A stretch of 64,000 nt of DNA from Barthelona sp. PCE (taxonomy: Eukaryota): positions 186,001 through 250,000 of the forward strand of contig JAUFOR010000006.1 in the NCBI GenBank assembly GCA_040285745.1, read 5' to 3'. Made by a program: the position numbers and the translations under genes. Positions within the stretch are counted from its first letter, which is position 1. Each line of letters begins with the position of its first letter. The notes beneath the pieces are model-generated. The model was not told where the DNA came from, did no database searches, and saw nothing but the letters and a program-made list of their open reading frames with translations. Below, piece by piece: positions 26,387-61,026 of this stretch.

Positions 26387-29300
26387 ATGAATAGTGGGTT
26401 TTTTATTACATTTTTTCTTCTTCTGTCCTTGACATTTGTTCTCTCTGTGCCAATGGGTATGATACAATTTCGTTTGAGCAATACATCTCACATTTAGCTG
26501 AAGAAACCCTTCTTATTGGAAGTTTTCACACAGATAGACTCGTCTTTGATATAGTCTCTCAATCGAATTCCGAACTTTTACTTCCAGCCAGTCTAACTAG
26601 TCAACTTTCAGTAGATTCTCTTAGTCTTCCAAGTGGGCAACATACATTCCAGACTGTCCAAAATGACAGGACAGGACATTTCGATATTGGGGGTGGTTAT
26701 GGAGGCATTTACTCTTATAACTATACGCACGGAGATTATGAGGTTAGTCTTGACCTTCCATTCCCTAAAATCGATGGAAAGACACTCTCTCTATGCGTTT
26801 CTGAAGATCATAGCACTACATTCCAGTTTGTTACAACAGGAAGTGATTTATATCTCGTAACATACGATGATAATGACCAAATGTCTCACAAACTAGAAGG
26901 AGTGACTATAGATCCGTTCAATTGCGTTGAATTGGATAATTATATCTATTTTGTCTCTAATCGAAATCTCCAAAAACTTGATTTATCTGACAACTCCATT
27001 TCAACTATCCATACCTTTGGAGCTCGAATCCAGGCTTTTGGACATCGTTACGATGAATTGTTAGATAGACGCCAGTACTTTTTTGACTTTGTTGTTGCTG
27101 GTCGTTTGCAATCCATTAAGAATTTGAATTCTCCTGATCCTACTGATTTGGGTACGTTTGCATTACCTACTGGTGTGTGCGAATTACATGCGTCAAGATC
27201 TGTGGCTGATGGAGTTGAAGCTGTGTGTCTTGATGGTGATCATAATAAGATTTTTATTGTTACTCCTAATGGTCATACTGAGCACACGTGTACTGGTAAC
27301 GCCCCATTTACCTTTGTTTATTATAAGTTACCTATTGCTCAACGAACTACAACCCCACCAAGCGTTTTCCAAGAATCATCAGTTATTGTTGATTACAGTG
27401 GATGGTTTCCTTTTGATCTCGGTGTTTATTATACAAAGAAGTATGATGATACCTTCCCTGAGACTAGTTCCAGCCTGGATATTGATACAATTGCGAAAAC
27501 AATCACTTTTTATGTTGAAGAAGACTTTTTTGGCAGAAAACTACAGTATGTTGACTTTATTTTCGATTTCGATAACCGTGCTGCATCTCTGGCTAATGAT
27601 TTGATTGAAGTAGGTTATCCTAGCACCCGTGTTTACTTTATTCCAGAAATTTTATCCATTCAACCTTCAAAACTTGCTACAGTACCCGATCAACTGCTGA
27701 ACATAACGTTCTCTGCGATGGAGGGCAGTTTTAAGAACACTAAAGTACTGTTTAAGGATGTTGGTGATTGCTTTTCTCCTTTTGAGATTGGGCAATCCGT
27801 TGCTTGTTTCACTCCTGCAGGTTTCGGTACAACAACTGAAATATCCATTGGATTTACAGCAGTTGATAATACCACACAATTCGCTATACCAAATGGTCAC
27901 AGTATTATCAACTGGCAAACACCAAAGATCTATACGTTATCACCTGTTCTCTTCTCTACGCAACCTTTCACCGCTGTCATGACACTCCGTGGTACTAACT
28001 TTGGCCCTGGTATCAAGAATGCCACCGTTACTATTGGCAATTATACAAGTATCAGTTCTGTATATAAAGGAAATATTCATACACATACCGTTCTCAGTTG
28101 TGTCATGCCAGAAGGCGTTGGCCGTGACCTGAACGTTAGTGTTGAAATCGAAGGTGTAGAATCAAATATTGCATTCACAAAGGTTTCTTATCAACCTCCA
28201 CTAGTTTTGGCCGTTGAACCCAGACAAATTAAATTCAATGGTGGTGAACTCACCATTCTTGGTATGAATTTCGGTCCTACATTGGAAACTATGAGTGTTA
28301 ATATTGGAAATTATTCGTGTCAGCCAACTGAATTTTTAATTCCTCATAGACAGTTCAAATGCACATTGGAACCAGGTGTAGGTGCCAATATGGATGTGAT
28401 GATTAATGTAGGTGGACAGAGTGCCATCCTGGCATCAACTCTCTCCTATGATCCTCCTGTTGTCGAATCAATTTATCCAATTTCTTCTTCTACTATTGGA
28501 GGATCAACGATTACGATCACAGGAATGCATTTTGGGCACAGTGAACATGATGAAATAACAGTTTCTATTGGTCAGTTCACCTGTTTCAATGTGGATCGCT
28601 ATTCTTCTACATCTCTGTCATGTGAGGTGCCCCCCGGCACAGGAAGCGATCTTTTGGTGTTTGTTTCCGTCGCTGGACAACAATCTAACACCAGTGTTCA
28701 GTTCTCATATCAAGCCCCTACTTTCCTTAACTCTTTTTCAGTCGGCGATCTTATCACTGATGGCGGAGCTCGTGTCTACATTGAAGGTGCTAATTTTGGT
28801 ACTAACGATATTGGTACCCATAGTGTTTTTATTGATAAATTCGAAGCCACACATATTAGTGTCGAAAGTAATCACTCAATGATCGGATTCACAGTTCCAC
28901 CTGGTGTAGGCGCAGACCTCAATGTCACAGTCACTGTTTCGGGCCAAGAACTCTTTATTCCCAGTATGTTTTCGTATGCCGAACCCATTGTTACGCACAT
29001 AAATATTTCTTCCTTTGACTGTGAGGGTGGTGCTATCGTAAAAATAACAGGCACTTCCTTCCCTGTACTGCCTTCGATCCCAGGTGTCATGTGGGCTTAT
29101 GATGCCCTCAAGGTGACATTAAACTTTGTTCAACAGGATCTTGATTTCAGTTTCCCTGCTTTTAGGGTTAATGTCGTCTCCACAACTGAAATCCATTGCG
29201 TGCTTCCACCAGGTGCAGGCACAGACATCAGACTTGTCGTATCTTATGATTACAGTGGTGTTACGATAAATGGCGTCGTCAGCTCTGTATTGTTTACATA

Positions 29301-32300
29301 CAATGCTCCTGTCATTCAAAATATCGACCCTCTCTTCTTATCCACAGCCTCAGATACAGAAATCATGCTTTCTGGTAAGAACTTTGGTAGATACGACTTC
29401 ATTCCATTGGAGGTACGGCTAATTAACGCTGAATATGGCATTGATCTCCCCTGTGTCGACATGGCACGATGGGGTGACGATGGCCTCACATGTTTTGTTT
29501 CTTATGCTGTTGGTGCTGATTTGACATTAGAAATCAATGTTGCAAACCAGATAACAACGACTGACTACACCATGTCTTACATGTTACCTGAGATCACATC
29601 TTGTACACCGAGCACATGTACTGTCAGTGCAAATAACGGCGGATCGTGTGATCCAATTACAATAACAGGCGTTAACTTTCCTCCACCTAAAGACCCTGAT
29701 GGTAACCCTTATGATACTCGTGTCTACATCGGTGATAAGGAATGCGTGGGAACGACATGGTTGTTCTTTGGTGGACTCCAATGTTATCCCCAGTTATCTG
29801 TTGGAGAAGACTTGCTCGTTCGAATTCAAACATTGAATCATCATTCGCTGACTTCTTCTATTGTCTTCTCATACTCACCCGCCCCATTGGTGGTTGGTGT
29901 TTCACCAAGTTTATTGCTTTTCAACTCTTCTAATGCTGCATTCACTGTTTCAGCACAGTATTTGGGAGAGTTCTTTACTCTTACCACTGAATCTGGACAA
30001 GAATGTACAGATTACAGTACAACCGTGTGTTCATCAAATGAATGCAGTTTCACATGTAACTTTGCATCAGTTGTAGGATCATCTAAGTTGTTCCTCAGAG
30101 CTGGAAATCATAAGTTAGAGCTCAGTAGAACACTGGAAATCTTGCCACCAGAAATCAGTCACCTTTCAAAGATGACAGATATTGTCAAAGATGAATTAAT
30201 TTATATACATGGTTGGAATTTTGGTCATATTGATCACACTAACTCACCATTGGTTACGTTCAATGATGAAGTCGCAACCGTACTTAGCTTTAATGACACA
30301 TGCATCTCTATTGAAGCACCAGTCGGCTACTCTAAGGTAGATGTCAAGGTTGCATTTGATACAATTGAATCTAATGCTGTTGAAGTTGAATTCATGGCTC
30401 CCAGCAATATCATTGTTGTTGCTTCAAACTCTGAGGTCGAACCATATTTCGGATCCACTATATACATCAGTGGTGATGACCTTAGCTCATACCCACCTCA
30501 TATGATTAACGCTACAGTTGGCGGTATCCCAGTCTTCTGTCATAGTATTTTCGATGCAGAGTACAAACTCACATTAAAAACGCCCCGAATTTCTGATATG
30601 GGACCTAATCCTGAGCTCATTCTTATGATTGGTGGGGATATCATTCACCGTGAGATCATCGAGTCAATCGAACCATCTATTATTCAAGTCAGTCCGATGA
30701 AGTACACGTATACCAGTAGCGAAGAATACATTCATGTCGTTTTGTCGGCACATGTACCTATTCCAGTTTCATTCAACGTGATGCAGGGTTTGGATCCGGC
30801 AGCATGTACTGTGACGACCATTGCAACTAATCATTATAAGTTAAAGTGTGATTTCACTACTTTTGATCATAACCTCTCTTATAACGTTGAACTTTTGTAT
30901 AAGACCTTGGTAGTTGACATATATGAACTTCAATTTGCTGAAGAATCAGGTGAACACAAAAATATGTTGTTAGATGCAGATTTTTCTGCTTGGTATCCCT
31001 CTTCATGTTCCTATTATTTGGAAAATTTAATTGGTGATACATACTTAATCCAAGAAGAAATGGACAGATCCCCACTGGAAGGTGGAATTTTTGTTATCAA
31101 ACGAGACTGTATTGGTGTTATCACTTATATTTCTGGTGATAAAGCATTTCCATCACTCGATGAAGTAATTATCCACAGTTCTGTATCTCCTTTCTTCAAC
31201 AATTCCGTCGCAGTAGCTAAAGTTGGAGGGTACCTACCATTCGAAGAAGAGGTTACTGTGCTTATTGGGGGCGGAAACGAGCAAACTGGAGTTATGCTAG
31301 GTGATGGTGTAATTGGTTTTGATATTGTTGTCGCAGAATTGTCATCCACTGTTGTAGAAATTTTGTTTGATAATATTGTAGCTGAACCAGTAAGTGTTGG
31401 CTCTTCATCAATCGCTCCTTATTCCGTTTCAATTTCACCAAATGCTATAACCCGAAATGAAGCTATCCTCATAACTTTTGTTGGTAATCTGCCTTTTGAT
31501 GATGATGTTGTTTTCATAGAATTGACAGATGAAAATGGAAATGTACTTCAAATTGAAGCATCTTCCGTAAGCTCATCACTTGTTGACGGAATTGTATACA
31601 TCGATGATCCGAACAGAGTTTTCCCGACCCTTTCGGGTGATTCTTACGATGTTGTTCTACGTAGCATTGACGTTATCATCCACTGTGGTTCAATTAGCAT
31701 ATTTAGCGTTCATTCTGTGTCACCAACTTTTGGGTCTATGAGCTCTTGGATTCCAATAATCGTAGAGGGTACTGGTTTTGTCGAAAGTATCAATCCTACA
31801 TGTGTTTTCACTCTATCAGATGGTTCAGGCTCTTATCAGAGTATTATTACTCCTACCATTCTTTCTGAAACACAACTTCAGTGTAATGTTCCTCCAAGTA
31901 AGGAGACAGGTGGCGTTAACTTCTATTTGAATGCGAACAGCCATTCAGCATCACCTAATGAAGACTTTATCAAATACAGTGATGTTGTGATTGAGTCATT
32001 CGCACCTCATGTAGCATCGTTGGATGGAAATGACTTCTTTTCTGTTGTTAACTTTACTGGTGGACCCAAGGATTTATCTCAGTTCCAGCTGTGGTTAGTT
32101 GATTCTTTAGAACAAAGATTTGAGATTAGTGATGTGGACTTCTCTTTTCAGTCATTATATTTCCGTATTCCTGCTTATGACACACTTGGTCTTGATTCAA
32201 ATGAGAAGAGTTACCGAGTTGTATACACATTTAACGGTGTTGAAATGAATGAACTCCCAAATCGCGTCTTCTACACTCAACCTGTTGTCACTACAGTCAG

Positions 32301-35300
32301 CCCTCTTCGTGTTAGCCCAGCTTTCCCCATCCCAATCACTGTGGATGGTGCTTTCTTTGTTAACGCCAAAGATGATTCTTTCCTATGTTCGTTCAACGAT
32401 GTAATTTCGCAAGGATACTTTTTCAATTCAACTCGTGTTATTTGTCGTGTTCCTCGTAGTGTGAAAGAGTTTGGTGACCAGGTCTTCCGAATTTCTTTTG
32501 ATATGGGCCAGTCCTGGACTAATGCTCCTTCAGTTTTCTTCATCCAGTCAGTTACAGAGAGTTGTCCTGCAAGTGTATACACCCCATCCATTAGGAAAGA
32601 ACGTCGCATCAAGCAGCAGAGCTACAGGCTTCGCAACATCGCAGGAGACGCATCAATCGAATCCACTGGACTTTCACCTTTTGTATACAACGATACACGT
32701 ACAATAATTGACGGAGATCGATGCTGCACTCCAACCGATGAGAACTTCGGGCTGTGTGGTTTGAAATTCATCTCAAAAACAAACGTTTCTGTTGTGGTCA
32801 AATTCCCCTCACCAGCATATCTTGAAATGATTGTTACTGATTGGCTTGACCCTTGTAACCAGCAACCAAATGCGTTCTCTATCGAAACAATGCAATTCAG
32901 GCCTGATAATGCCGATTGGAGCACTGATTTCGACACTGATGGTGAATGGAACCATATTAGTGATCACTGGACTGGTCGCGGTACTATTCCTTTTGATGTG
33001 TATCCCCGTACATGTTCGTCCATCATCAGTGAACAGGGTGATGTGTCGCAGTGTGTTGATACATTCAAGAATGGCATTATTGTTGATGCTATTCGTCTTA
33101 ACTTTACCAACCGTTTACAGAACCGTAACAGAGCTCATCTCATGGAGTTTGAAGCCCATGGTCTTTTCGTGGCTGAGGCTTTTGAACTAGACGGTGCACT
33201 TGCTGCAATTGGTCTTCCTGAAGATGTTCCAAAATCACCTCAATACAAGTTCCAAATGAAGGAGCTCGAGCCCATCTCTATTCAAACTGATTTCTCCGTC
33301 ACACTCCCATCCATCAACGTCGCGACACTGAACTACGCAGGCACAGCGCTTGGTGACGGTCTAATGGTTGATGCTGAAGTTTCAACACTTTTAGTTGCTC
33401 GTCTAGACGACCGTACGTATGTTGATGAATCAAAGTTTACATTAGATGAGCTTGAGGAATATGAGCGTCAGATTGAACTAACTGAGGATTCTCGGAAAGA
33501 TTATGAAAAGGAAATGGAAGTAGTCAGTGTTCTCCGTGAGTATATGGCAGCACCAGACGCCTCCGAACCCTTAGTTAACGGTCGTGCTTCTCTTGATATC
33601 GAACTGAGAGCTCCACCGAGTGCTGGTCATGATTATGCATATGAACTGTTCGTGTTCTCACAAACAGTTGAAGTAGGTTTCGTTGTACCCATTAATGTAC
33701 TCCCTGGGCCACCTCGTCATATTTCTGTCGAGCCACTGTCTAAACTGAGATACCCAACATATTTCAACGTCACGATCAACCCAATTCAGATATCTATGTT
33801 GGACGCATCACATCATCCTGCTGACTTGACGTTGGGTGATCCAATTGAGGTGAACGTTACAGTTCTTTACCTCAGAAACGTGGATCCTTTGGAAAGACTG
33901 AACCCTGATTTTATCGAACCAGTACCACGTGATGTGACCGACACGATTTTGTTGGAGCAATTAAAGAACGATTCTTCTTCAATCTCAAACAGTACTGACT
34001 TTGTTGAGCTGTATCCGGTCCTTCAAAGCCCTGAAGTAGGCCGTTATTACTTTGTCATTCATTCAAATAGCTCTTCCGATCCAGTTACGTTGACCATCAC
34101 TGTTGCACCGGGTCTTCCTGATGCCATTCGCATTATTTACCCGCAATCGACATTGGTTCCGAACCATGCGCCGTTCTCAATTGCCCCTGTAGTGGAAATT
34201 ATAGATTATTTATCTAATGTTGTCGAAAATACTTCATTAACAGTAACAATAATTGCTTCTGATGAAGAAGACAAGTTGTTGACAATGTCAGATGTGGCAA
34301 CGCGTTCTTACACAGCACTGTCAGGTGTCGCCTCTTTCGAAGACATGTGGGTATCGGCCAAACATGGCACATCATTTGTGCTCACAGCTAGGGTTGATTC
34401 TCCATTATTGGAGGATGTTACAAGCCAATTGCTCACCTTAGAGAGCTGCCCAACTTCAAAAGCAAGTGTTTATGACTCATCAGAGTTCAAATACACCTGT
34501 GTATGCCAACATGGTCACTTTTTAGACGGAAGCGTGTGCACACAATGTCCGCAGAACACCTACAAGGATGTTGTCGGTAACGATGTGTGCACAACATGCC
34601 CTGCGTTGAAGGGAACATGGGGAAGGGGGTCCATTGATAGATCAAACTGTCTGTGCATTGGTAATCTTCTTGAAATCGATGACAGATGTATCCAGTGCCC
34701 TGAGGGTCTGATCTGCGTCAATGGTGTTGCAAACGGTACGCTCCCTTCATACTGGAGCAAGAATCTTACATCGAGCAGCGTTTACACATGTACTAACACG
34801 GCATGTCTAGGTCGAAGAAGTGATTCTCTGGAGCCATGCGAGCCCTACCATAGCGGCCCTCTGTGCAACATATGCATTGATAACTCCGCTCGTGTTGGAA
34901 AAGGATGCTCACCATGTTCAGATAAGGCGTGGCTCGATATTTTAATTCTTCTCGTTATTCTATTCTTTGCAGCTGGTCTCATATACATGCTTATCCGAGG
35001 TAGTAAGACTCCGAGGTCACAGGCCTCGCAGTACACTCGTATTGGTATGAACCACGCACAGGTCTTGTTCGCTCTTGGTGATTTCGGTGCTCGCTGGCCT
35101 GGAATGCTCAAAAGTCTGTTCGGTGCCGCCGGTGCCGCCGGTGGTGGTGTATCTATTCCCGCATTCACATGCACGTTGGGATTGAACTTCCAAAGACAGA
35201 CATACGTATACTACCTTCTTCCATTTGTGATGGTATTCTTCCTATGGATATTCTATAGGTTATTCGGTGACAAGGAAGAGCGTAGACGCTCTAAATCTTT

Positions 35301-36465
35301 AATTTCACCAGAATTACAAAGAGCTATTCTCGCTGTACTTTACACTTTGTATTCTATTGAGTTGAAGCAATCGCTGCAGGCATTAAGGTGCGTCAATATT
35401 GACGGAGAGCATCTGCTACTTGCTGATATGTCGATCCACTGCGATTCAAGCTCGTATGGAACGTTCAGACTGGTTAGTTGGGTCGCTCTTGTTGGTTATG
35501 GTGCAGGAATTCCAGTTCTTTTCCTCATTTTCCTCATTATTGATCTGAACTTGAGCATGAAGTTACCTGATGGTACAATCCCACCTTCCAAATTTTTAAG
35601 TGGTGGTTACCGAAAGAGAACCTTCTTCTGGGAGATTGTTATCGTAGCGCGTAAAGCGATCATCTCTATCCTCACTGTTTTCTTAGCTAGCAACATTGAC
35701 TTGCAATTGATCATGGGTACAGGTACCATTTTTGTATTCCTGATGCTTCATTCATTGTGTCAACCTTACAACTCAAAGACAACCTTCACTCTGGAGCTTT
35801 TATCGTTGTATATTATGTTTGCTACTTTACTGAGTGGTATTACCCTTGGTGCTGATGAGGTTACGACTTCACAGAAAAATATCATCGCCTGGGTTGTTCT
35901 AATTGTTAATCTCGTCATTCTGAGCACAGTGTTCTTCTACTATGCTCATTTACAGTATGATAAATGGAGAAATAAGAGGAGAAAGAAGAAGTATAAGAAT
36001 GGTTTTAAACTACTCAACAACCGTGAAGAATCTCAATTCATTGAGCTCCAGGAGTTTAAGATGACAGTGAACCCTCTGTATGAGAGAGACAGAGCAGATG
36101 ATGATACTAATGATGTATCACTCGGTGGTATCACAGACGAGGTTCGTATTAAGAGAGTTGGACCGATTATTCTCTACTTTGAAGACCTCAAGAAGGAGGG
36201 TATGGTGCCTGAAGGCATGGCGGAAGATCTGTTGGAAGATATCAAGATTACTTTCGTCACAGAGAGGCTTGGTTTCGTAGATATATGCATTGAATTCATT
36301 AATGTGTTGATGGAACCACAAGAATATACATATAGTATCAGAGAACTCAAGGCTGTCAGTAATATGGATGAAATCATTGATCTCGATATGGTTGAACTAT
36401 TGTCGAAACCTTTCTATAGATATATTAACAATAACTTCAACAAGCCCATCAGAGGGCGTAAATAG
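26387..36465 (+). CDS. Giant surface protein: signal peptide, IPT/TIG repeats, discoidin-like domain, Cys-rich repeats, multi-pass TM C-terminus (exons 26387-26456, 26498-36465)
   Basis: Exon 1 encodes a signal peptide (MNSGFFITFFLLLSLTFVLS). Removing intron 26457-26497 joins it in frame to the 3194-aa ORF. Repeated ITITGxNFG...C.VPPG.G..L.V.V.V.GQ; CTQCPQNTYKD; hydrophobic C-terminus with YRKRTFFWEIVIVARK. Confidence 0.85.
26457..26497 (+). other. Spliceosomal intron, 41 nt
   Basis: GTATGA...CTCACATTTAG; removes an in-frame TAG and links the signal-peptide exon to the long ORF. Confidence 0.9.
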
Positions 36466-36505
36466 CAATAAACTAATGTTATAATTTATTTCTCCTTTTT
36501 CAGTA

Positions 36506-37572
36506 ATGAGCAGCGATATTCTGTTCTGTGGGTTCAATCAAAACACGTCTTGCCTTGCAGTGGGAACAGACCATGGGTTCACCATATTCAACACTGAACC
36601 TTTCAGTCTTAACATAAAGAGAAGTATCATTATTTTGACTTTATCATTATTTTGCGCTCACATTTAGTAATGGAGGCCGGAATTGGCCTTGTGTCTATGG
36701 TTTATAGGACAAACGTTGTTGGTCTTGTTGGCGGAGGAAACCCTCCACGATTTGCTCCTTCCAAAGCCATCTTATGGGATGATCATCGTAAGAGAGTGCT
36801 TGGAGAGATTACACTGTCAAGTCCTGTTAAGAATATGCTCTTAAACGCTTCAAATATTTGTATCGCTCTTGAAGATCGTGTTCTGGTCTACAAGCTCGAC
36901 AACCTCATGTTGATGCATGAGGCACAGACTGTTCCAAACGAAGGTGGCGTTCTCGCACTGAGTGGAAGTAGAAACTCCAATATAATGGCTTCCTTAACGT
37001 GTTCTGTTGGTGAAATCCTCATATACAACCTCCTCACACAGACGTCATTTCGGATCGAGGCTCATAAATCCCCTATAAAATGTCTAGCGTTGTCAGACGA
37101 TGGAAAATGGCTTGCTACAGCTTCTGTGAAGGGAACGCTAATTAGAGTCTTTGATCTTTCATCGCACGACCCCGCAAATCCCTCAGTAGAGGTTTCAAAG
37201 CGCACATTCCGTCGTGGTACTGACCAGGCCAGCATTACATCAATAGCGTTTTCTCCTGCTCCAGACAACCGGTATCTAGCATGTACAAGTGACCATGGCA
37301 CCATACATATCTTCTCCCTATTGGAAGGCCGTAATCCTCGACCAAAACTACACTTCTTAAGAGGGATGTCGGAGTATTTTGATTGTGAACGATCGTTAAT
37401 TACATTCAAGTTGGAGGATACGATGCCGAAGGTAGGTTTCCTTGCTGACGACCAGCGCTTGGTATGCGTAACATCACAGGGATCGTTCTATGGTTTTGAT
37501 ATTGATGTGAACAACAATACCTTAAACCCTTATGTCTATGAAAACTTTGTAGCATCATTAACTGATGATTAA
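36506..37572 (+). CDS. ATG18: PROPPIN family WD40 protein ATG18/WIPI (exons 36506-36623, 36668-37572)
   Basis: Exon 1 MSSDILFCGFNQNTSCLAVGT; AHKSPIKCLALS, LATASVKGTLIRVF, lipid-binding FRRG, SDHGTIHIF. Confidence 0.9.
36624..36667 (+). other. Spliceosomal intron, 44 nt
   Basis: GTATCA...CTCACATTTAG; splicing joins the conserved Atg18 N-terminus in frame. Confidence 0.9.
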
Positions 37573-37608
37573 TGTTTTGTTTTTTGTATTTATTACACAA
37601 TTTATAAG

Positions 37609-38880
37609 TTACTTGGAAGTCAAAAATTCCATGACACTGCGTACGGCTTCTGCACTATTGAAACTAATAAGACCATAGCTTTGACTCAAGATATTACTGT
37701 TTCTTTTGCTTAAACCAGGTGACACGGCATCAGAATCTAAAATTAAAATCTTTGCACTCAATACTGTTCCAAAACAACTGAAAATTTGGCCTAATTGCAA
37801 GTCACTGAATTCATTGGGGATGTTACCGATAAGTATGTTGGCTCCTTTTGGCCCTTGAATAAAATCTTTTACGCTATTCAACTGAATCAATGGTTCAACG
37901 CTACAAAATTGAACTGCGCCCTGAGGTACATGGACAATACGCTCGAAAGGGAATGTCATACTGGCCAGTAAAACCTCCTCTTGGCCTGGGTTGTCGGGAG
38001 AAATAATTGTTGGTGGTGGAATACCCAACTGCTTTGACTGTTCGTATAAATTCTCATAGTGTTCGGTGTCTTCTTCACTTGCAGCACGCAAAGTAAGACC
38101 ACGTAAAGCGCTATGCATACGCCTAACCTTCTTTTCTCGGTCAGAATCCGCAAATTTAATAACAGAAGCATGTGGTGCATCAGCAAACAAAAAACGATTA
38201 TTAAAATGATCTCTCACACGTTCTGCTTGCTCGATTGTCTTCATACGTAGAAAAGCACACCCCTTCGATTGCAAATCTGCATCTCTTAATATTGTAATCT
38301 CATCAACTTCACCATAATTTGGATTGTTAAAAATATTATGCAGATCCTCTTCGGTGATTGTTTTCGGTATCATACCGATAAACAGCTTAAATTCGGCTGT
38401 TTGCGGGTCAGGATTGTATTGTTTTGTACTGATAGAAGAAGCAGAGCGATGCGGTGTAGAATACTTAGTTCCTGAAGCAAATCGCACTTGCAAAGGGTTG
38501 GACATTGCTCCACACGCGCGGGTGTTGTGTAAGACATCAATGGCACGTTGAGCATCGTTCAATTCATAAAAATTAACAAAACCACAACCTTTTGAGCGTC
38601 TACTATTCCTCTCCCGGATGATTGCTACTTCCGCAATAGAACCAAAGGAACGAAATAAATGCCTGAGCTGCTTTTCATCCCAAGAACGAGGTACTTGACC
38701 TACAAACAGCTTAACGTACTCAACCTGCTGTTGTTTCTGCATAGGCATGAAGAAATTCACAGGATTTGCCTTGCCCGTTGGAACGAAACTGGGAATAAAA
38801 GGACGAGAACTTCCAGCGTTCACTCTCACCTCCTTTTTACCACTATTTGGCCTGAAAGGCCTGGTTGGTTTGGAGCTCAT
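37609..38880 (-). CDS. CELF/Bruno-like RNA-binding protein (three RRMs, third truncated)
   Basis: KLFVGQVPRSWDE, SKGCGFV, PLQVRFA; KLFIGMIPK, SKGCAF, VIKFAD; GPKGANILIGNIPNEFSD...FGTVLSAK. Confidence 0.9.
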   Translation of the reverse strand: MSSKPTRPFRPNSGKKEVRVNAGSSRPFIPSFVPTGKANPVNFFMPMQKQQQVEYVKLFVGQVPRSWDEKQLRHLFRSFGSIAEVAIIRERNSRRSKGCGFVNFYELNDAQRAIDVLHNTRACGAMSNPLQVRFASGTKYSTPHRSASSISTKQYNPDPQTAEFKLFIGMIPKTITEEDLHNIFNNPNYGEVDEITILRDADLQSKGCAFLRMKTIEQAERVRDHFNNRFLFADAPHASVIKFADSDREKKVRRMHSALRGLTLRAASEEDTEHYENLYEQSKQLGIPPPTIISPDNPGQEEVLLASMTFPFERIVHVPQGAVQFCSVEPLIQLNSVKDFIQGPKGANILIGNIPNEFSDLQLGQIFSCFGTVLSAKILILDSDAVSPGLSKRNSNILSQSYGLISFNSAEAVRSVMEFLTSK

Positions 38881-39178
38881 GGTTGGTTTAAACTGATAAA
38901 ATCAATCTCTACCACATATAAGCGATAAAAATATTACTACGTCAACAATTTTACAGCAAAACTTTCCCACATCTGCAAGCTGGTTGATAGTACAAACACA
39001 GACTTTTCCAATCAATATAACACTAAAACAATCAAACTAGAAATAGCTGCATAATAATAAATGTGGATACACTTACAACAGTAGTTTTAACCAAATTTTT
39101 GTGGTATACACACATGATACAAGAATGAAAAACTTTGTTAAAACCAAAACTAATAAAAAATTATGTTTGTATGTTTTA

Positions 39179-39640
39179 CTACTGCTCTTCTTCTTCTGGC
39201 ACCATCATTGCCTTACTCACATGTTCAGACCATGCCAAGTACATGCTCATCTGCCTCTGCTTCCTCTCCTCCTTAATTGTGCGTTCATATAAAACAGTCC
39301 TCATCAAATAATCAAATTCCGTCTGAGAGAAATCCTTTAACTCATTCATCATGTGCTTCTTATTGATGATCGAAATAGTTTTAATTGAATTACTGCGAAT
39401 TGTCATCACACCATAAGGTTTATAGGCATATTTGCTGTTAATTACAAGTCTTTGGAATACATTGTTAAGTGTCAGGTTGCCAAACTGATCGAAGGTTAAT
39501 AACTCCCCCATGTATACTTCTGTTTCGTTGAGTGTAACCAGTATGGGATGCCCAAGATAAATGCTCAAATAACTGACACCTGGGAATACCCGAATGCGCC
39601 GCTTTTCCTCTGTTTCTGCGTTATTTTGCCACTTTGGCAT
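39179..39640 (-). CDS. LSM1: Sm-like protein Lsm1
   Basis: Sm1/Sm2 motifs GELLTFDQFGNLTL...KYAYKPYGVMTIR with an Lsm1-type C-terminal helical extension. Confidence 0.7.
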   Translation of the reverse strand: MPKWQNNAETEEKRRIRVFPGVSYLSIYLGHPILVTLNETEVYMGELLTFDQFGNLTLNNVFQRLVINSKYAYKPYGVMTIRSNSIKTISIINKKHMMNELKDFSQTEFDYLMRTVLYERTIKEERKQRQMSMYLAWSEHVSKAMMVPEEEEQ

Positions 39641-39704
39641 CTGTTATAATAGAAATTGAATATAAAGCTGAAAGCAAATATTTCCACCATTACTTATTCT
39701 TAAA

Positions 39705-41499: not shown

Positions 41500-43170
41500 T
41501 CAAACATCAATATCTTCTGGTAACGGACTTATCCTACAATGATCTGTAGTGTTCGGAGCGAGGAGTTTGCTTGGTGTTGAGAAATCATCAACATGATTAA
41601 TGGTGCCAGTTTCCAAAATCGGGAAATCTTCTTCCTTATCCTCAAACATAAACTCTTCTTCCTCGTCTATGTACTCCACTTCTTCAATTACTGTCGCACC
41701 CATTGGTACAATTTTTTCACTTGGTGTCCTGACCTTCAAAATAATCCACAAACCAAAAAAGATTAAAAAGAAGACAAATAAAAGTGCAAATCCATATGAA
41801 CTACTAATGTCACTTCCAAGGGACTGTGAAATACTGATAACCTGACCGAAAATCAACCCTCCTAAGCTTGAACTAGACTTACCTGCAAACTTCGAGATTG
41901 CCAAAAACTTTGCAAAATGTTGTGGAAAGGGTGAACATAGCTCAACCATAAATAATCTTTGACCAATCCAAGCACCGCTCAGTGCTGGTCCTGCAAAAAT
42001 GGGAATAAGAGCAAGTACTATAGATCCTGCGTTGAAACCCCACTCATCATCAAATATCCAGATGTTTGCCATAATCGCCACCAATGCCACGGTCCATAGC
42101 AATGCAGTTGTCGTGAATATTGCACGTGGACCCTTCTTCTTCCCTACCCAACCTAATGGGGTTGTGAGAATTACCGCACAAACGGCTGACGCGATGAATA
42201 TATTCATCGCTGCTGACTCTGATAAACCACAACCATCACGCATAATCGGAATAATAAACACAATGAGGAGTCCAGTTGCGTCTGCAAAAAAGAAATAACC
42301 GATAACGAATTTAAAGATTTCTTTATGATGACGTATCATATTCTTTAACGTTTCCACCAATTGCTCAAAGGCACCACTGATAATAACCCCTATCCGCACC
42401 TTCTCGGGAACAAATACTGTCTCTTTAGCAAACCAAAATGGCAAAGAAATTACTAAAAATGTTGCTACCAATAAAACATATGAAAATGGTTCTCCAAAAT
42501 AACCAAATTCAATAACAGGCTCGTCAGCAGATACCCTGGACACTGGCGTACCATACCATGAATCCAATAGTAGCGTCTCTCCAGCAGCAATACCAAAACC
42601 TATATTTGCATATGCTAAAGTCAATGATGAAGCCAAAGCTACCTTGCCTTTGTCAGCAATGAAGGGGAGCATGCTGTCAAAAACACAGTTCATCCACTGT
42701 GTTACAGCATTACCTGCGAAAATGATAACAGCCAATAACCAAAAATTACTGGTTAAACTTGGTAAAAGAGATATAACCGCTGCTATGAGGAGGAGAAGTA
42801 TCGCAAAGGGTTTTCGACTTCCCAGTGCATCTGCTACAGCTCCTATCGGAGGCATCATGATTGCTGTAACAATCTGAAAAAGACTTCCAATCAAAGTGGC
42901 GCGGGAATAACTTTGACCATAGGACCAACCGTGTTCTAATTGTCCGCTCACCAAAAGCAGTCTGTTTCCAACCAAACTAATAAAGGCGGTGGACCACAAT
43001 GTTGATGCCACATCTAAAAAACCCCATGACACTATGTTACACCATGTGCTCTCCTTACAGTAATGAACATTGTCCCGGTGGGTTGAAATTATTACGCTGG
43101 CTGATAAACGGTTCGTTGTTTCTAAAAAATCTGTATCGCATTCAATATCATAGTTCTCTGAGTCTGACAT
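41500..43170 (-). CDS. MFS transporter, UMF1/Atg22-like
   Basis: About 12 TM segments; SWGFLDVAST, PPIGAVADALGSRK, FDSMLPFIA, FVIGYFFFADA, FAGKSSSSLG. Confidence 0.75.
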   Translation of the reverse strand: MSDSENYDIECDTDFLETTNRLSASVIISTHRDNVHYCKESTWCNIVSWGFLDVASTLWSTAFISLVGNRLLLVSGQLEHGWSYGQSYSRATLIGSLFQIVTAIMMPPIGAVADALGSRKPFAILLLLIAAVISLLPSLTSNFWLLAVIIFAGNAVTQWMNCVFDSMLPFIADKGKVALASSLTLAYANIGFGIAAGETLLLDSWYGTPVSRVSADEPVIEFGYFGEPFSYVLLVATFLVISLPFWFAKETVFVPEKVRIGVIISGAFEQLVETLKNMIRHHKEIFKFVIGYFFFADATGLLIVFIIPIMRDGCGLSESAAMNIFIASAVCAVILTTPLGWVGKKKGPRAIFTTTALLWTVALVAIMANIWIFDDEWGFNAGSIVLALIPIFAGPALSGAWIGQRLFMVELCSPFPQHFAKFLAISKFAGKSSSSLGGLIFGQVISISQSLGSDISSSYGFALLFVFFLIFFGLWIILKVRTPSEKIVPMGATVIEEVEYIDEEEEFMFEDKEEDFPILETGTINHVDDFSTPSKLLAPNTTDHCRISPLPEDIDV

Positions 43171-43501
43171 TCAATTATACAGATATTTGTCAGTAAAATT
43201 GAGTTTGTAAAAGAGAAAGAAATGGAACAACAGCTTACGAACAAAAAATCTAAAATGGTATTGATGTAAGAAGGAGAATCACATGTAAGGAATGTGGTAA
43301 TATATTCCATACATACCACATAATACCATGAAAAACTTTCAGAACAAATCCTAATGCAGCAAAATTTGTCCCATCCTATATGAACTAACTTTATATCATT
43401 AATCTGGTACCATCCATATAATATGCATCTAACCTCCTGTTTCAGATACGGAAAACATAGACTACCAATATAATTTGTTTTCCAGTTTTTCCCCACATTA
43501 A

Positions 43502-44698
43502 ATGGCAAAATTTCCATTTAAATCTCTCTTGAATGAGCCAAAACACAACATTGTGTTAATTCCACTCATTCTTGTTGCGGAATTCTGCATCTGCTTGCTG
43601 ATAATTCATTTTGTGAATTACACGGAAATTGACTGGGTTGCATACATGCAAGAGGTCGGCGGATACCTCTCCGGTGAGAAGAACTACATGAATTTACGTG
43701 GTGACACTGGTCCTTTAGTGTATCCTGCCGGTTTTGTCTATCTGTACTCTTTCTTTTTTAAGATCACTAATTTGGGCACCAACATCAAGCTTTCTCAAAT
43801 CATTTATGCGTTTTTATACGTATTTAATCTTTTCTTTGTGTATAAAATATATCTTTCAGGCACTAGAAAACCCAAACCTTATCATCTTATGTTATTAAGT
43901 GTATCCCATCGAATTCACTCAATCTTTGTCTTACGGTTGTTCAATGATTGTTTTGCAATGTTTTTATTCCATATTGCTTTATATTTACTGATTAAAAGAA
44001 AATATCTTTTTGGTGTTATAATGTTTTCTCTAGCCATTTCCATCAAAATGAACGTCCTTGTGATGCTCCCTGCTCTTGTCTGGTTCCTAGCAATTGAAAG
44101 AGGCTTCCTCCGTTCATTATTGTATGTCTTGATCTTGGTTGGTACTCAAATTTTTGTTGCAGCGGACTTTTTAATACATTTTCCTATCCAATACTTAAAG
44201 AAAGCCTTTGAATTCGATAGAGTGTTCTTCTATAAGTGGACTGTGAACTGGAAAATGTTTAGTGAACAAACTTTCTTATCACAAAGTCTAAGTAACACTT
44301 TATTGGTCAGTCACTTCACTTTGTTATTAGTTTTCCTTTTCTTAAAGTGGGGATCTTTTAAACGTGCTATTGGTGTTGTTTTTCATGTTGTCAAACCAAC
44401 AAAGATGAGTAATGATAAAATTGTCACGCTCTTTTTTGAATGTAATTATATTGCTATGGTTTGTTCACGTTCTATGCATTATCAATTCTATTCGTGGTAT
44501 TTCTTCACACTCCCATGGTTAGTTTTCCATAATATAGCTGACAATGCAAAGAATATTTGTTTCGGAGTTGCTATTCTTTTCTGTATTGAGTGGGGTTGGA
44601 ATGTTTTCCCCGCTAATGCTGCCTCAAGTACCATACTCATGGTTGCCCATGTTGTGCTGCTGGTTCGTCTACTTTTAAAGCCAAAGATGGAAGAATAA
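43502..44698 (+). CDS. ALG3: Dol-P-Man:Man5GlcNAc2-PP-Dol alpha-1,3-mannosyltransferase
   Basis: YTEIDWVAYM, GDTGPLVYPAG, RIHSIFVLRLFND, KWTVNWK, SRSMHYQFYSWY. Confidence 0.97.
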   Translation: MAKFPFKSLLNEPKHNIVLIPLILVAEFCICLLIIHFVNYTEIDWVAYMQEVGGYLSGEKNYMNLRGDTGPLVYPAGFVYLYSFFFKITNLGTNIKLSQIIYAFLYVFNLFFVYKIYLSGTRKPKPYHLMLLSVSHRIHSIFVLRLFNDCFAMFLFHIALYLLIKRKYLFGVIMFSLAISIKMNVLVMLPALVWFLAIERGFLRSLLYVLILVGTQIFVAADFLIHFPIQYLKKAFEFDRVFFYKWTVNWKMFSEQTFLSQSLSNTLLVSHFTLLLVFLFLKWGSFKRAIGVVFHVVKPTKMSNDKIVTLFFECNYIAMVCSRSMHYQFYSWYFFTLPWLVFHNIADNAKNICFGVAILFCIEWGWNVFPANAASSTILMVAHVVLLVRLLLKPKMEE

Positions 44699-47211: not shown

Positions 47212-47216
47212 TTTTT
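47212..47216 (+). terminator. RNA polymerase III terminator (T5)
   Basis: TTTTT immediately after the tRNA discriminator base. Confidence 0.7.
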
Positions 47217-47405
47217 GACAATTTATTTTTTCACTTTAAATGTTGATGTATAAAATAATATTATAAGCCTTTATTTCTATATTATTAAAATAGTTTTTTT
47301 ATCATTTTTAACATTTTTTGTTTTTGGACTCTAAGGTTGAGAGTTCAATTTTTAATAAAGTCAACTTTTCAACATTGGTTGTTTTCTATTTTATTTCTTT
47401 TTCAA

Positions 47406-49220: not shown

Positions 49221-49248
49221 AAAAAAGAAAATGTTTATTATATATACC

Positions 49249-51324: not shown

Positions 51325-51560
51325 TAAAAATAAACAAAGCTGTACAAAAAACTTGTGATAGAGAGAGAAAAGGTAGAACAAGTATTGTGATTTATTTTTA
51401 CCCTTTTCATATTTTAGATGGAGATGCGTTTGAAGCCAACACACAGCGGTAAGACGATAGTTGTCTTCGTTGAGTAACTGATCATGAATTAGACCAATTT
51501 CTTTGTGCTTTTTACATTTCTTCTCTTTTCAGTTTTTATTGGGACAGTACTGTACATGCA

Positions 51561-53441: not shown

Positions 53442-53445
53442 CTTA

Positions 53446-55269: not shown

Positions 55270-55407
55270 AATAAAAAAAAGAACCTTTTAAAAGAGTGAA
55301 AAAAAAAAATTGTAGTTAGTTTCAAGTGCTTTGTTTCATTTTAGCATACTCAATGAAGTTTATGCAATCTAATCGAGATATTAAACTATATTTTACTACT
55401 TTTCAAA

Positions 55408-56406: not shown

Positions 56407-56836
56407 TAGTAGTGGTGCAAATTGAAGTGGTAGAACGGAGGAGAATTGGAAAAACAAAGATCTTTTTATGCAGTTTTTTCATGTCGTTTTGATAGCTCTT
56501 AAAGGGGTTAATGTATAGATTTAGTGTTTATTGGTTGAAATCAAGAGTATTCACATGTAAATAAAGGAGCCTGCACTATTTGCTGCCAATTTTTTTGATT
56601 AATTACTGTATCTTACCCATATTCGCGAGATAAAATAGTATTTGGTGCGCTTCAAACGATTTTTTTAGAGGAAAAGTATATCTCTTTTTAAAACTGCCTT
56701 ACATATTCTTTTCCATCAATTTTATTAGTGAAATGACGGTAATATTTCAACTTATAGTGATAATCAGGAATAAAAGCCTGAAAAATTGCTTTATCAATTA
56801 TTCCCCCATTTCTACTTGATTTCCTAAAAGCGCACA

Positions 56837-59239
56837 ATGTCAAACTCGACCTCAGTTCTACAACAGCTCGAGGACGATGATTCTGAGTACGAATACGAAG
56901 AAGAACAACCTACAGGAGCCGGAATGCGTTTTCTTGATATGGAAGCAGCCGGTGAGAGCGAAGAAGAAGAGGAAGACGGAGAGTATAACGAAGATGAGTT
57001 CAATGACTTCATCTCAACAATGCAAACAGATAAGCGTGGTCGTAGAAGTTTCGCTGATATTGATAAATACATGAACATGACTGAGGAGCAGGCCGAAGAC
57101 ATGTCTACTGATGCAGTAATGGATGATTCGGTACGTTTACACTTACTAAAACCTGATCTTCATGACCCCAAAATTTTCGAGGTCATGTGTCGTCCAAACA
57201 AAGAATTCCTCGCCGTGAGGCAGCTTACAATCATTGCAACGAACCATCAGCTTCGGAATAATCGTTTAGGGGTTACTGCAATATTACACGCCAATCGACG
57301 TGGTGCGATTTTCATTGAAGCAATGAATATTAAGGCGGTTGAGAACCTTTTGCAGTACGCTGGATCGGAGTACATTATGTTTACTAAACCACCGGTCCTC
57401 ATTGAAGACCCGACGAGAGTTTTCTTGAAACTATTATCCACTTCTGCTACAAATCTTACACCAGGTTCTTACGTAAGGATCAAGAAGTCACCCTACACCA
57501 GTGATTTGGGTGAAGTTGTCTTTTATAATTCTGCACGTGAAGAAGCCATGGTAAAAGTTGTACCTCGTATTAGGTATGAACGTGGTGGTGTCAAAGGACG
57601 CCCAGAGCAAAAGCTTTTCGATCTTAGCATCGCAGCAAAGTATTCAAAGTCTGGTCATATCTCAAAGAGCGTCATTCATGGTATTGAAGTTTACCATTAC
57701 AGAAGGCATAGGGTTGGTGTCAGTGATAATATGGCCTATGTCATCTGCAAGCTTGAGGATCTGGAGACTGATGGAATTGTTTTCTCAGCAAAGGAGATTC
57801 AATTTTTTAGTATGGAGAACAGACAGTCTATTGAATTCATCGTTGGAGACCGTGTGACAGCCATAGAGGAAAGTTTCAAGGCTTCACAGCTCACAGGTAC
57901 AGTTGCTAGCAAGCATGAGCGTAACGGAGAGATTTTCTTGGAGGTTGCATTTGATAGCTCGTTCAATCTTGACGGAACGTATGAATTCCCAGTGTCAGAG
58001 GTCCTGTGGTTGCCCATAACAGGCGACAAGGTGCGTTACACCGAGGAATCGACTGACTTGGAGGGAACGCTTGTTTCGTACTCGTTGGAGAACTATACAG
58101 CAGTCATTGCTACATCAACGGGTAACACAGTGACGAAATTGCTCAGCGAGATCACCAAGCCAGCACAAGAGGTTGAATCAGTTGGAGATTTTGTCAGGCA
58201 TTCGTTGATAGAGTTATCTCTTGGAAAAGTTGGAGTTATTTTACGTATGACTCCATACAATGCTACGGTTCTGTTGACTACAAACAAGATGATGGACGTT
58301 TCACTCGAACAGGTCCGTCTCATTTCTCAGGCATATGCACGTGCTACAGCTCTCGATAGTCAGCGCTCAACGATTCATAGAAGTGTTGAGGTTCAAATTT
58401 TGCGTGGTCCAGGTATGGGCCGTCACGCCACTGTGCGATATGTGTACAACTCGTATCTTTTCTGTGTCGATAACAACTCTAGATGGGTATGTGTTGCTGC
58501 AGGTGACGTTTTACTTAACAAATCTGAAGAACCTCGCATGCTTGTTAACAGCGTACCCGCATCCCTCAGCAGAGCAGCGAAGCGTACAGGTGTTCGCGTT
58601 ACTGACAAATATGTTATCATTGACAGAGGCGAGTACAAAGGAAAATACGGTTACATCGAGTCACAACACGGTGGTTTTGTCCGTGTTAAACTCGAGGCAC
58701 TCGGAAGGACAGTCTCTGTTGATCGTCAGGCTATTAGAGAAGCAAATTGGCAGAAGAGTATCGGTGAGACCACAACCATTCGTACAGCTCAATGGGAGAC
58801 AGATGATCTCTGGAATGATGAAGCCATGCCAGAGGAGACTATGGAGGTACCAGGAGAGGTAGAAGAGGAAGAGTTTGATTTGTTTGATGATGGTAAGGTG
58901 TATTCTACAATCAATGAGAAATTAGTCGACTTCGAATGGGTGCTTCGTGGTGCTTACATTTGTCACAGACAATCTGGCGAGGAAGCAGTTATTTTAGAGA
59001 AAGAAGGAGATGTCGTACTGGTTAAGTTACCTAATCAGGAGCAGACAAGGTGGCAAGTCTTTGATATTAAGCCTGGTTCCATTAGAGATGATTGTACGTT
59101 GTATGTTTGGGAGAATGATAGTTTTGAAGTCCAAGATTGTCTGTTTGCAATGGAAAGAAATATTCAATTGGCTAATAATTCTTCTACTTCACAGGACAAG
59201 GTCATTAGAATCGATAGAAACATTGCTGGTATTGAGTAA
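56837..59239 (+). CDS. SPT5: Transcription elongation factor Spt5
   Basis: Acidic N-terminus (RFLDMEA); NGN domain (PDLHDPKIFEVMCRPNKE, GAIFIEA); KOW domains (YVRIKKSPYTSDLGEV, VKVVPRI, RPEQKLFD, GEYKGKYG). Confidence 0.92.
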   Translation: MSNSTSVLQQLEDDDSEYEYEEEQPTGAGMRFLDMEAAGESEEEEEDGEYNEDEFNDFISTMQTDKRGRRSFADIDKYMNMTEEQAEDMSTDAVMDDSVRLHLLKPDLHDPKIFEVMCRPNKEFLAVRQLTIIATNHQLRNNRLGVTAILHANRRGAIFIEAMNIKAVENLLQYAGSEYIMFTKPPVLIEDPTRVFLKLLSTSATNLTPGSYVRIKKSPYTSDLGEVVFYNSAREEAMVKVVPRIRYERGGVKGRPEQKLFDLSIAAKYSKSGHISKSVIHGIEVYHYRRHRVGVSDNMAYVICKLEDLETDGIVFSAKEIQFFSMENRQSIEFIVGDRVTAIEESFKASQLTGTVASKHERNGEIFLEVAFDSSFNLDGTYEFPVSEVLWLPITGDKVRYTEESTDLEGTLVSYSLENYTAVIATSTGNTVTKLLSEITKPAQEVESVGDFVRHSLIELSLGKVGVILRMTPYNATVLLTTNKMMDVSLEQVRLISQAYARATALDSQRSTIHRSVEVQILRGPGMGRHATVRYVYNSYLFCVDNNSRWVCVAAGDVLLNKSEEPRMLVNSVPASLSRAAKRTGVRVTDKYVIIDRGEYKGKYGYIESQHGGFVRVKLEALGRTVSVDRQAIREANWQKSIGETTTIRTAQWETDDLWNDEAMPEETMEVPGEVEEEEFDLFDDGKVYSTINEKLVDFEWVLRGAYICHRQSGEEAVILEKEGDVVLVKLPNQEQTRWQVFDIKPGSIRDDCTLYVWENDSFEVQDCLFAMERNIQLANNSSTSQDKVIRIDRNIAGIE

Positions 59240-59293
59240 TAAAAGTTATGAAGGTTGGAAGATTGTTTTGTTTTTTCACTCCATTTCAAAAGA

Positions 59294-60176
59294 ATGTCGC
59301 AGCAGGCTATCACCAAAATCAATAGGATTTTACACAGGCTGGACTCTATTATCGATGAAAACGGTGGAATTAAAGAAGACACCAAGCAATTGAAGCTTTC
59401 TGTCTGGAAGAGCACGCGTAACGAATTATCTTCCCACATCAAGTCCATTAGAGAGGTATGACGACGTTCAAGATTGATATACTTATGTTTAGATGGTAGA
59501 ACACAGAGATCAGATTGCTGCAAAGAAACCACATGACAGACAGGTTCGTCAGCTTACAGCTCAGATTAGGTCGGAACTCTCCAACCTCAAAGAAGAATAT
59601 GAAGATTTGGAGGGTTTGAAAACCTCAAAGGTAAAAAAGAACACTCAAGATGATGCTCCAGAGATCCGTGAACAGGTTCTCGATCTCGCACAGCAGCATA
59701 TATCCCAAATTGAGAGCAGTTTAAGCAGAAAGAAACCTTCCAGGGAGGCAGGAGAACGTGTTAAACGTTCTTCATTATTTGCTCAAAAAAAGAATGGTGA
59801 ACCTAATCAACCAACGCCAACCAAGCCACTTATCTCAGAGCAGCTCCCAGAACTTGATTGTGATGAAGGATTAGCTCAAATATACGAGAACATTGAAATT
59901 CAGGATGGTAAATTGGAAGTTTTGTATAATTCAATAGTCAAAACAACAGATACAGCATTAGTTATTGGTGATGAGTTAGACAAACATGAGGAACTAGTTG
60001 AAGTTATTAGTGATAAAACTCAAAAAGCAACTGAACAAATTTCAGATGTTAACAAGAGAATCAAAAAGGCTATTGTAAGTGTACGAGGAGGAGAAAAATG
60101 TACATTGGATCTCATTTTACTGGTTTTGGTTGTATCCATTGCTTATTATATCTATCAAATGTTATCAAAAGCATAA
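59294..60176 (+). CDS. Qc-SNARE of the SYP7 (syntaxin-71-like) type (exons 59294-59455, 59493-60176)
   Basis: N-terminus ILHRLDSII; SNARE motif IQDGKLEVL...ELDKHEELVEVI; C-terminal CTLDLILLVLVVSIAYYIY TM anchor typical of SYP7. Confidence 0.8.
59456..59492 (+). other. Spliceosomal intron, 37 nt
   Basis: GTATGA...CTTATGTTTAG, phase 0; joins two adjacent ORFs into one SNARE. Confidence 0.88.
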
Positions 60177-60236
60177 AGGGGAAATTGTGAATAAAAATTA
60201 CAAAAAAGATTTTCTTTACTTTCCTAACCAGTTTGA

Positions 60237-61026
60237 TTAATCCTGTCTGGATCTTAACACAACAGTTCTTACATGTTCTTTTGTTACAACAGTCACATGT
60301 AATTTCCATCCTGATATAGCATCTCTGTTTAATGCTCCTTGCATAGCATGAGCAACAGCATGCATTAGTTCCTCTTCTTCAAGATCAGGACGCCAGAACG
60401 TCTCTGCCATACCCATAAGATTCTCTTCACACGTGCCTGCTACAATAAAATCATGAGGTTCTGTAATATCTCCGATAATATCTGTTCCATACACTCGAGG
60501 CTTACCATCTTTATCAAAGCCTGCGATGATGCCCTCAACGTAGAACGGTGACCAGCGTTTAATGTATTGTTCGTGAGAAAGCATGTGAGTAAAGGCTTCA
60601 ACATCCATATCTCGCTTTTCCTTCATTTTATAAAGGTTGCTGTGGAATTTCATTGTGCTGTGGAGTGTCTGAACGTCAGAGGCCATTCCAGCTAAGCCAT
60701 AGTAACATTCATCATTGATTCTGAAAACCTAAATATTAGTAACTGAATCCAGTTATTAAAGAGTTATGCAGCGGTTATTGTAAAGGGAAACTCGCAAAGT
60801 GTGAGTTAAAATATGAGCAATATCCCCTTTAAAAATAAAAAACACAGTTGAAGATCAACTGATTAACAACATAAAACATTTAAATGTCACATACGCGCTC
60901 GAAATCTTTGCCTAAAAACTCGGCATTGTTTCCAATTTTGCTGTCATAACCAATAGCGATGCAGGATTTTCCTGTCATTGCCATCATTGCGCCTCCATTA
61001 ATTTCCATTGGATTTTGATCTGACAT
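60237..61026 (-). CDS. PSMB3: 20S proteasome subunit beta-3 (exons 61026-60895, 60728-60237)
   Basis: Exon 1 MSDQNPMEINGGAMMAMTGKSCIAIGYD...KDFER; exon 2 VFRINDECYYGLAGMASDVQT...GMAETFWRPDL...NRDAISGW...RQD. Confidence 0.95.
60729..60894 (-). other. Spliceosomal intron, 166 nt, structured
   Basis: GTATGT...CTAATATTTAG on the minus strand, phase 0; restores a contiguous beta-3 sequence. Confidence 0.92.

Follow-up and report, generated by a model that had tools for sequence, protein, structure and literature searches.

Work on fused branch-point/acceptor signals has so far concerned organisms that possess very few introns. Giardia, with 11 known introns, is reported to combine the donor VTATGTT with the fused 3' signal VCTRACACRCAG (Hudson et al. 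2019, PMC6679479), and the type A introns of Trichomonas are described as following the form GYAYGY...RCTAACACAYAG, in which exactly 7 nucleotides (nt) separate the branch A from the 3' splice site, as in Giardia (Wang et al. 2018, PMC6260720). The same paper describes two intron classes (A and B) with different signals in Trichomonas, where a few dozen introns have been validated, and cites mutagenesis in which the conserved splicing motifs proved necessary (PMC6260720). The arrangement found in Giardia and Trichomonas, in which the spacer measures 4 nt and a polypyrimidine tract is lacking, has been treated by Irimia and Roy (2008, PMC2483917), who report that the strong branch sites of intron-poor lineages fit WCTRAYN and regard the architecture as convergent in such lineages, including Yarrowia with its 2-nt spacer. 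Here we describe introns in Barthelona sp. PCE, a free-living, anaerobic and deep-branching metamonad with a genome of 10.2 Mb, 40.3% GC and 5064 proteins (Williams et al. 2024, PMC11316075). The analysis covered a 64-kb window (positions 186,001 to 250,000 of contig JAUFOR010000006.1, assembly GCA_040285745.1; all coordinates below are those of the window), the deposited Barthelona sp. PCE proteins and homology comparisons. Four verified introns in the window all end in one 11-mer, CTHAYRTTTAG. They are genuine GT-AG introns, and their 3' end quite probably forms a single composite spliceosomal signal, consisting of a yUnAy-type CTHAY, a fixed RTTT and the AG. Barthelonid intron signals were not described in the literature that we searched; the main text of the genome paper names introns in its methods only, and its supplements may hold intron statistics (PMC11316075).

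Removal of a GT-AG intron restores a continuous homologous frame in all four genes. The deposited NCBI proteins are identical to the spliced models in three cases (introns 1, 3 and 4), and for introns 2, 3 and 4 the junction is bridged by homology. Intron 1 (26457-26497, forward strand, 41 nt, GTATGA...CTCACATTTAG) interrupts the gene of the TIG-domain surface protein PCE1_002879. Its exon 1 (26387-26456, forward strand, 70 nt, phase 1) joined to 26498-36462 gives exactly the deposited protein (P0031, 3345 amino acids), in which Pfam recognizes TIG and ephrin-receptor-like domains. The 23 residues encoded by exon 1 are hydrophobic and resemble a signal peptide, in keeping with a giant TIG-domain surface protein. 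If the intron is left in place, the frame from the ATG at 26453 reaches a stop after 14 codons, and the open reading frame (ORF) beginning at 26881, where the first downstream ATG in frame is found, matches no deposited protein. Intron 2 (36624-36667, forward strand, 44 nt, GTATCA...CTCACATTTAG) lies in a PROPPIN gene of the WIPI3/Atg18-like type, with exon 1 at 36506-36623 (forward strand, 118 nt, phase 1). Residues 4-34 of this exon match residues 9-39 of WIPI3 (E 8.8e-9) and exon 2 matches residues 47-264 (E 3.6e-33), so that the junction fits within one residue. Without splicing, the frame is closed by a stop codon in the intron, and a protein consisting of exon 2 only has no deposited match. 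The borders of intron 2 are accordingly taken as genuine on the strength of the WIPI3 homology across the junction. A donor 15 nt further upstream, GTCTTA, is also in frame and was rejected, as it has no GTAT and, by comparison with WIPI3, its use would remove five additional residues.

Intron 3 (59456-59492, forward strand, 37 nt, GTATGA...CTTATGTTTAG) follows a 162-nt, phase 0 exon 1 (59294-59455, forward strand) in a SNARE gene, and its spliced model equals a deposited protein of 281 amino acids (P0032). The alignment of this protein to its homologue P0033 runs ungapped over residues 36-95 across the 54/55 junction (E 9e-28), while the unspliced frame meets a stop one codon past the junction. 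Intron 4 (60894-60729, reverse strand, GTATGT...CTAATATTTAG) is with its 166 nt the only long one, and carries the motif at 60739-60729. It splits the gene of proteasome subunit beta-3 (PCE1_003129), where exon 1 (60895-61026, reverse strand) comprises 132 nt or 44 codons in phase 0, and the spliced model again equals the deposited protein (P0001, 207 amino acids). Among solved beta-3 chains, exon 1 has its counterpart in residues 3-41 or 4-41, and the counterpart of exon 2 begins at residue 42; the stop-to-stop ORF of exon 2 starts at 60728, that is, at the acceptor. A comparison of the beta-3 protein with metagenomes returned four loci of 24-58% identity and no close relative, and was not used further. 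An earlier note on this DNA, made from the sequence alone, had placed all four 3' ends and all four donors at precisely these positions, and had stated that every intron falls within the first 165 coding nt, which agrees with the exon 1 lengths given above. Its 4-nt exon 1 (ATGG) for the TIG gene was in error, since the deposited protein starts at 26387 and exon 1 therefore measures 70 nt, although the intron borders themselves were right.

The window is compact, with about 91% coding sequence and a GC content of 32-44%. Exact matches to CTHAYRTTTAG number five on both strands (128 kb in total), against 0.51 expected. First-order Markov simulations (400 runs) gave 0.54 matches on average and three at most; none reached five. 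A GTAT donor stands 30-170 nt upstream of every one of the five real copies (simulated mean 0.22), and none of the copies falls in coding sequence. The earlier note had further supposed that the motif could reveal trans-spliced halves. No evidence for these was obtained, each copy having its GTAT donor in cis within 170 nt. All four introns, as well as the fifth motif copy (discussed below), show CTNAY at -11 to -7, a 4-nt spacer and an A placed 7 nt from the junction, with C(-11), T(-10) and A(-8) invariant in all five. Among the donors GTAT is invariant, while positions +5 and +6 vary (GA, CA, GA and GT in introns 1-4, AA in the fifth copy), with an A at +6 in the short introns. No polypyrimidine tract precedes CTHAY in any of the four intron sequences, as the earlier note had held, and the TTT of the spacer is the sole pyrimidine-rich part.

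Some results weigh against a composite signal of this kind. The evidence base consists of four verified introns in a single 64-kb window, and in a shuffle control one of 100 shuffles yielded five matches. The branch-like part is also far from strict: the pentamers are CTCAC (twice), CTTAT and CTAAT, and CTRAC occurs in none of the introns. CTRAY fits only intron 4 (and the fifth motif copy), whereas CTCAC and CTTAT have a pyrimidine at -9, so that three of the four pentamers depart from WCTRAYN where it has a purine. With a pyrimidine before the branch A in three introns, pairing with U2 would be weaker. One might then argue that the 11-mer is merely an extended acceptor consensus read by an acceptor-binding protein, comparable to the nematode TTTCAG, that the true branch point is an upstream A at a variable distance, and that CT..A.. 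owes its conservation to some other cause. Its most invariant letters are indeed TTTAG and not the branch-like part, three of the four pentamers disagree with WCTRAY, and C. elegans is described as having a strong TTTCAG without a recognizable branch site (PMC2483917). Barthelona resembles C. elegans in the conserved T-run just before the AG, but differs in that CT.A. is invariant at a fixed distance (comparison with PMC2483917). Moreover, the three letters at -11, -10 and -8 fit yUnAy in all five copies, and the frame corresponds base for base to that of Giardia and Trichomonas, where the cited mutagenesis shows the motifs to be required (PMC6260720). The short introns, in addition, leave only about 20-25 nt upstream of the motif, in which no other shared motif is present. 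We therefore consider a signal restricted to the acceptor distinctly unlikely, and retain the composite signal.

A further alternative is that the intron ends are alike through recent common descent, by intron copying of an introner-like kind, and not through functional constraint. The 11-mer of intron 1 recurs unchanged in intron 2, and ACTAATATTTAG is common to intron 4 and the fifth motif copy, as would be expected from copying. However, when the short introns are aligned, the invariant columns comprise both ends and one T only, the sequences being dissimilar outside GTAT and the 11-mer, and intron lengths range from 37 to 166 nt. Since the short introns are alike only at their ends, these ends appear to be conserved as signals and not via common descent of whole introns, and copying is a very improbable explanation.

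Compared with Giardia and the type A introns of Trichomonas, the Barthelona introns share the GT-AG borders, the GTAT-type donor, CTNAY at -11 to -7 and the A positioned 7 nt from the junction, and likewise the lack of a polypyrimidine tract, a short length with a 5' bias and, possibly, a folding potential in the long intron. The earlier note had drawn attention to this likeness, and the common frame of CTNAY, 4-nt spacer and AG bears it out, as far as the signals are set out in the three papers (PMC6679479, PMC6260720, PMC2483917). It was also right in proposing a more degenerate branch site and a distinct acceptor, given that CTRAC is missing and the spacer is RTTT, as opposed to ACAC/ACRC in the Giardia and Trichomonas signals reported. 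The Barthelona pentamers (CTCAC, CTTAT, CTAAT) fit only the loose yUnAy, and the A at donor position +6 of the short introns contrasts with the GTATGT type of the other two organisms. Judged by sequence, then, this is the architecture of Giardia and of the type A introns of Trichomonas at the same spacing, with the conserved letters moved from the branch sequence to the spacer. Apparent intron density is also much higher, at four introns in about 28 genes against 11 known introns in Giardia, and Barthelona is free-living.

Other systems resemble Barthelona in part. Spironucleus vortens has a fused branch/acceptor signal ending in TAG, introns of 40-67 nt, a 5' bias and both start-proximal and 5'-untranslated region (UTR) introns, but its signals are reported as GTAAGTY...RCTAACAARHTAG, with one extra nucleotide between branch and AG and a strict CTAAC (PMC6679479). 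In Yarrowia lipolytica and other hemiascomycetes the branch site is likewise anchored near the AG without a polypyrimidine tract, whereas the spacer is 2 nt and ACTAAC is strict (PMC2483917); the lineage being unrelated, this likeness is one of convergence. A strict spacing between branch and 3' splice site and the lack of a polypyrimidine tract are also features of U12-type introns, a parallel that is named in a heading of PMC2483917 and was drawn by Hudson et al., who judged the diplomonad signals closer to the U2 type (PMC6679479). A U12-type identity of the Barthelona introns was considered and rejected. The U12-type consensus comprises the donor RTATCCTT and the branch site TCCTTRAY, and neither occurs in any of the four introns. 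The donor of intron 2, GTATCATT, is the closest of the four and resembles the U12-type donor.

The following mechanism would fit the composite signal. The U2 small nuclear ribonucleoprotein would pair with CTHAY and bulge A(-8), which would thereby be the branch nucleotide and attack the GTATNN donor. The AG 7 nt downstream, as the first AG in reach, would be used for the second step, and no separate polypyrimidine tract, for which the introns leave no room, would be needed. Splicing may also be independent of U2AF-type factors, and the TTT of the spacer may serve in acceptor recognition. The spliceosome may be a reduced one, as the earlier note proposed. An Rfam search of the window recovered no small nuclear RNA, tRNA-Asp alone passing the gathering threshold; at E up to 1 the one extra match was to a long non-coding RNA, by chance. 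Two other genes of the window are candidates for a role in RNA processing, namely 39182-39640 (reverse strand), which encodes an LSM-domain protein of 153 amino acids, and 37612-38880 (reverse strand), which encodes a CELF/ELAV-like protein with several RNA recognition motifs and the best solved matches to CUGBP/CELF1-2.

The short introns (37-45 nt, the fifth motif copy included) would set the distance between donor and branch, and the long intron 4 may reach the same distance by internal folding. When both splice signals are kept unpaired, intron 4 folds at -31.5 kcal/mol, compared with -20.8 +/- 3.3 kcal/mol for shuffled sequences, none of 300 being as low, and the unconstrained fold has a z-score of -2.33. 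Less favourable to such a role is that the unconstrained fold pairs part of the branch motif, and that the exterior length of the folded intron, 26, is not unusual for this single long intron, 41 of 300 shuffles being as short. Long introns of diplomonads and Trichomonas are reported to fold (PMC6679479), and the parallel with intron 4, drawn from one long intron, may be regarded as a lead.

The only other exact match to the motif in the window (3727-3737) closes a candidate intron at 3693-3737 (forward strand, 45 nt, GTATAA...CTAATATTTAG) which is absent from the annotation. This stretch is non-coding, is situated on the sense strand upstream of the annotated ATG (3784) of PCE1_002956, has its donor at the usual distance and is preceded by a T-rich leader resembling those of other genes. 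At least one pair of motif and donor was present anywhere in 78 of 400 simulated windows. When the location at the 5' end of a gene is counted in, a chance origin appears unlikely, and we estimate it at a few percent. The candidate is divisible by three in length and free of in-frame stops, so its splicing is unprovable from sequence alone; its position before the annotated ATG would probably make it an intron of the 5'-UTR or one close to the start codon. A relaxed scan (yUnAy, a 4-nt spacer whose last three positions include two or more T, and AG) gave 27 matches, among which the non-coding extras at 56518, 61111 and 61556 (forward strand) and 39699 (reverse strand) have poor motifs and no supporting context. 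The one at 61556 ends a weak intron-like unit, 61507-61556 (GTATAT...TTAACAATTAG), upstream of the gene at 61638. The intergenic region in which this unit lies (61030-61637) separates divergent genes and is unusually long (610 bp). It contains two exact copies of GAGTTTGCAAAA (61284 and 61568) and one with two mismatches (61262), an element that is not enriched across the window (18 occurrences against 14.6 expected at up to two mismatches).

The earlier note had described the signal as common to all four introns. The four borders stand, but four is not the full count for the window, owing to the fifth copy with its GTAT donor, which lies outside the range given in that note, and to a doubtful annotated intron of PCE1_002956 (4052-4121, forward strand, GTACGA...GCTGTAG) that has no motif. 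The latter bears directly on an alternative in which the rule is local and not genome-wide, the intron population being mixed, with motif introns as one class and others using conventional, variably spaced branch sites. The intron at 4052-4121 shows precisely such features, its AG being preceded at 35 nt by a perfect CTAAC; two intron classes are described in Trichomonas (PMC6260720), and our survey was limited to 28 genes. The annotated model (3784-4051 joined to 4122-6727) equals the deposited protein (P0007, 958 amino acids), the annotation pipeline is reported to have drawn on RNA-seq hints (PMC11316075), and the coding score of the annotated exon 1 is normal (0.30 per codon, where the mean is 0.32). 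For these last two reasons an intron of another kind is kept as an alternative.

Homology tells otherwise. The downstream frame, read from 4049 without removing the intron, aligns with the paralogue P0009 from residue 1 on residue 1 (E 8e-49), and the same frame is gap-free with the N-termini of six paralogues. It follows that 4052-4121 encodes residues 2-24 of a conserved N-terminus, and that splicing would delete 23 codons conserved in all six, whereas the annotated exon 1 is unlike the paralogue (E 4.1). The annotated intron is thus probably an artefact of the gene model, to go by the paralogue alignments. Codon 4049-4051 is ATA where the six paralogues start with ATG, and the first in-frame ATG of the kinase-family frame is found 211 codons downstream, at 4682. 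Most likely, the start codon was lost or mis-called, and the gene finder therefore took in the upstream ORF by way of an invented intron; the ATA could reflect either loss of the start codon (in a pseudogene, or with a non-AUG start) or a base-call error. Alternative junctions at 4058-4112, 3942-4068 and 3972-4052 are in frame, yet they lack support and are superseded by the paralogue alignment. Taken together with the 20 other genes deposited as plain single-exon proteins and the lack of any other convincing split gene in the window, this makes a local rule rather unlikely, and the signal may hold beyond the window. The suggestion of the earlier note that the motif might serve to find missed exons is partly borne out, as it yielded the new candidate at 3693-3737 and flagged 4052-4121, the latter being contradicted independently by the homology of the paralogues.

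The ORF used as exon 1 of PCE1_002956 (3784-4065, forward strand, 93 codons, score 0.30 per codon) is unlike the kinase paralogues and may be a separate small gene overlapping the start of the kinase gene by 17 nt. The kinase-like family itself (P0007-P0014) has at least eight paralogues of 591-1470 amino acids on several contigs, with a conserved N-terminal region common to its members and a degenerate protein-kinase domain.

In order to count the introns of the window, 30 plain ORFs were compared with the deposited proteins by exact sequence. Twenty of these are deposited as single-exon proteins (4/10, 8/10 and 8/10 by batch), and seven of the ten without a deposited match are partial or alternative versions of spliced genes. 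The longest-ATG ORF at 1126-2415 (reverse strand, 430 amino acids), which has no deposited match, has an AT-rich stretch after its first ATG and probably starts at the second, at 2379. An ORF at 25953-26339 (reverse strand) has no deposited match from ATG to stop, but hits Pfam Cupin_2 (E 1e-7) with a coding score of 0.20, and may be unannotated or differently modelled. The ORF at 43125-43517 (reverse strand) likewise has no deposited match; its coding score is 0.00 and real genes overlap it. Roughly, and for this single window, about 28 protein genes with four verified introns correspond to about 0.14 introns per gene, and no further convincing split gene was found in the window. The reading of a BBS5 gene as truncated, with a missed upstream exon at 21944-22476, was rejected, there being no ORF above 66 codons and no signal in that stretch. 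P0003 and P0004 have open stretches of 76 and 68 codons before their annotated ATGs, but no intron is assumed there either: the codon scores (0.10 and 0.15) do not exceed the 5th percentile of genuine coding sequence, Pfam gives no hits, and the ORFs that start at the ATG equal the deposited proteins. The window also contains a deposited single-exon protein of 4806 amino acids (7526-21943, reverse strand) in which Pfam recognizes no domain at E up to 0.001.

The architecture as such is already well known. What is new here is the degenerate branch site, the different spacer, the free-living lineage and the seemingly higher intron density. One may tentatively go further and suppose, as a possibility short of an even chance, that the 7-nt distance between branch A and junction belongs to a metamonad-type spliceosome common to parabasalids, Giardia and barthelonids and is not the product of repeated convergence under extreme intron loss, with Barthelona using a degenerate, mammal-like yUnAy on the order of hundreds of introns, a figure obtained from four introns in about 28 genes and a genome of 5064 genes. 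Spacing, and not the strength of the branch sequence, would then be primary. The 11-mer already offers a cheap annotation check on the published genome, having pointed here to one unannotated candidate and to one questionable annotated intron. If a fixed spacing is combined with a weak branch sequence on many introns, Barthelona would provide a far better natural data set on the role of spacing, and would help to settle whether metamonads inherited the architecture from a common ancestor or arrived at it by convergence, the view that Irimia and Roy took for intron-poor lineages (PMC2483917). Should the property indeed be shared among metamonads, Barthelona would hold the first large natural set of introns with fused signals, including unannotated 5'-UTR introns that could be found by means of the 11-mer.

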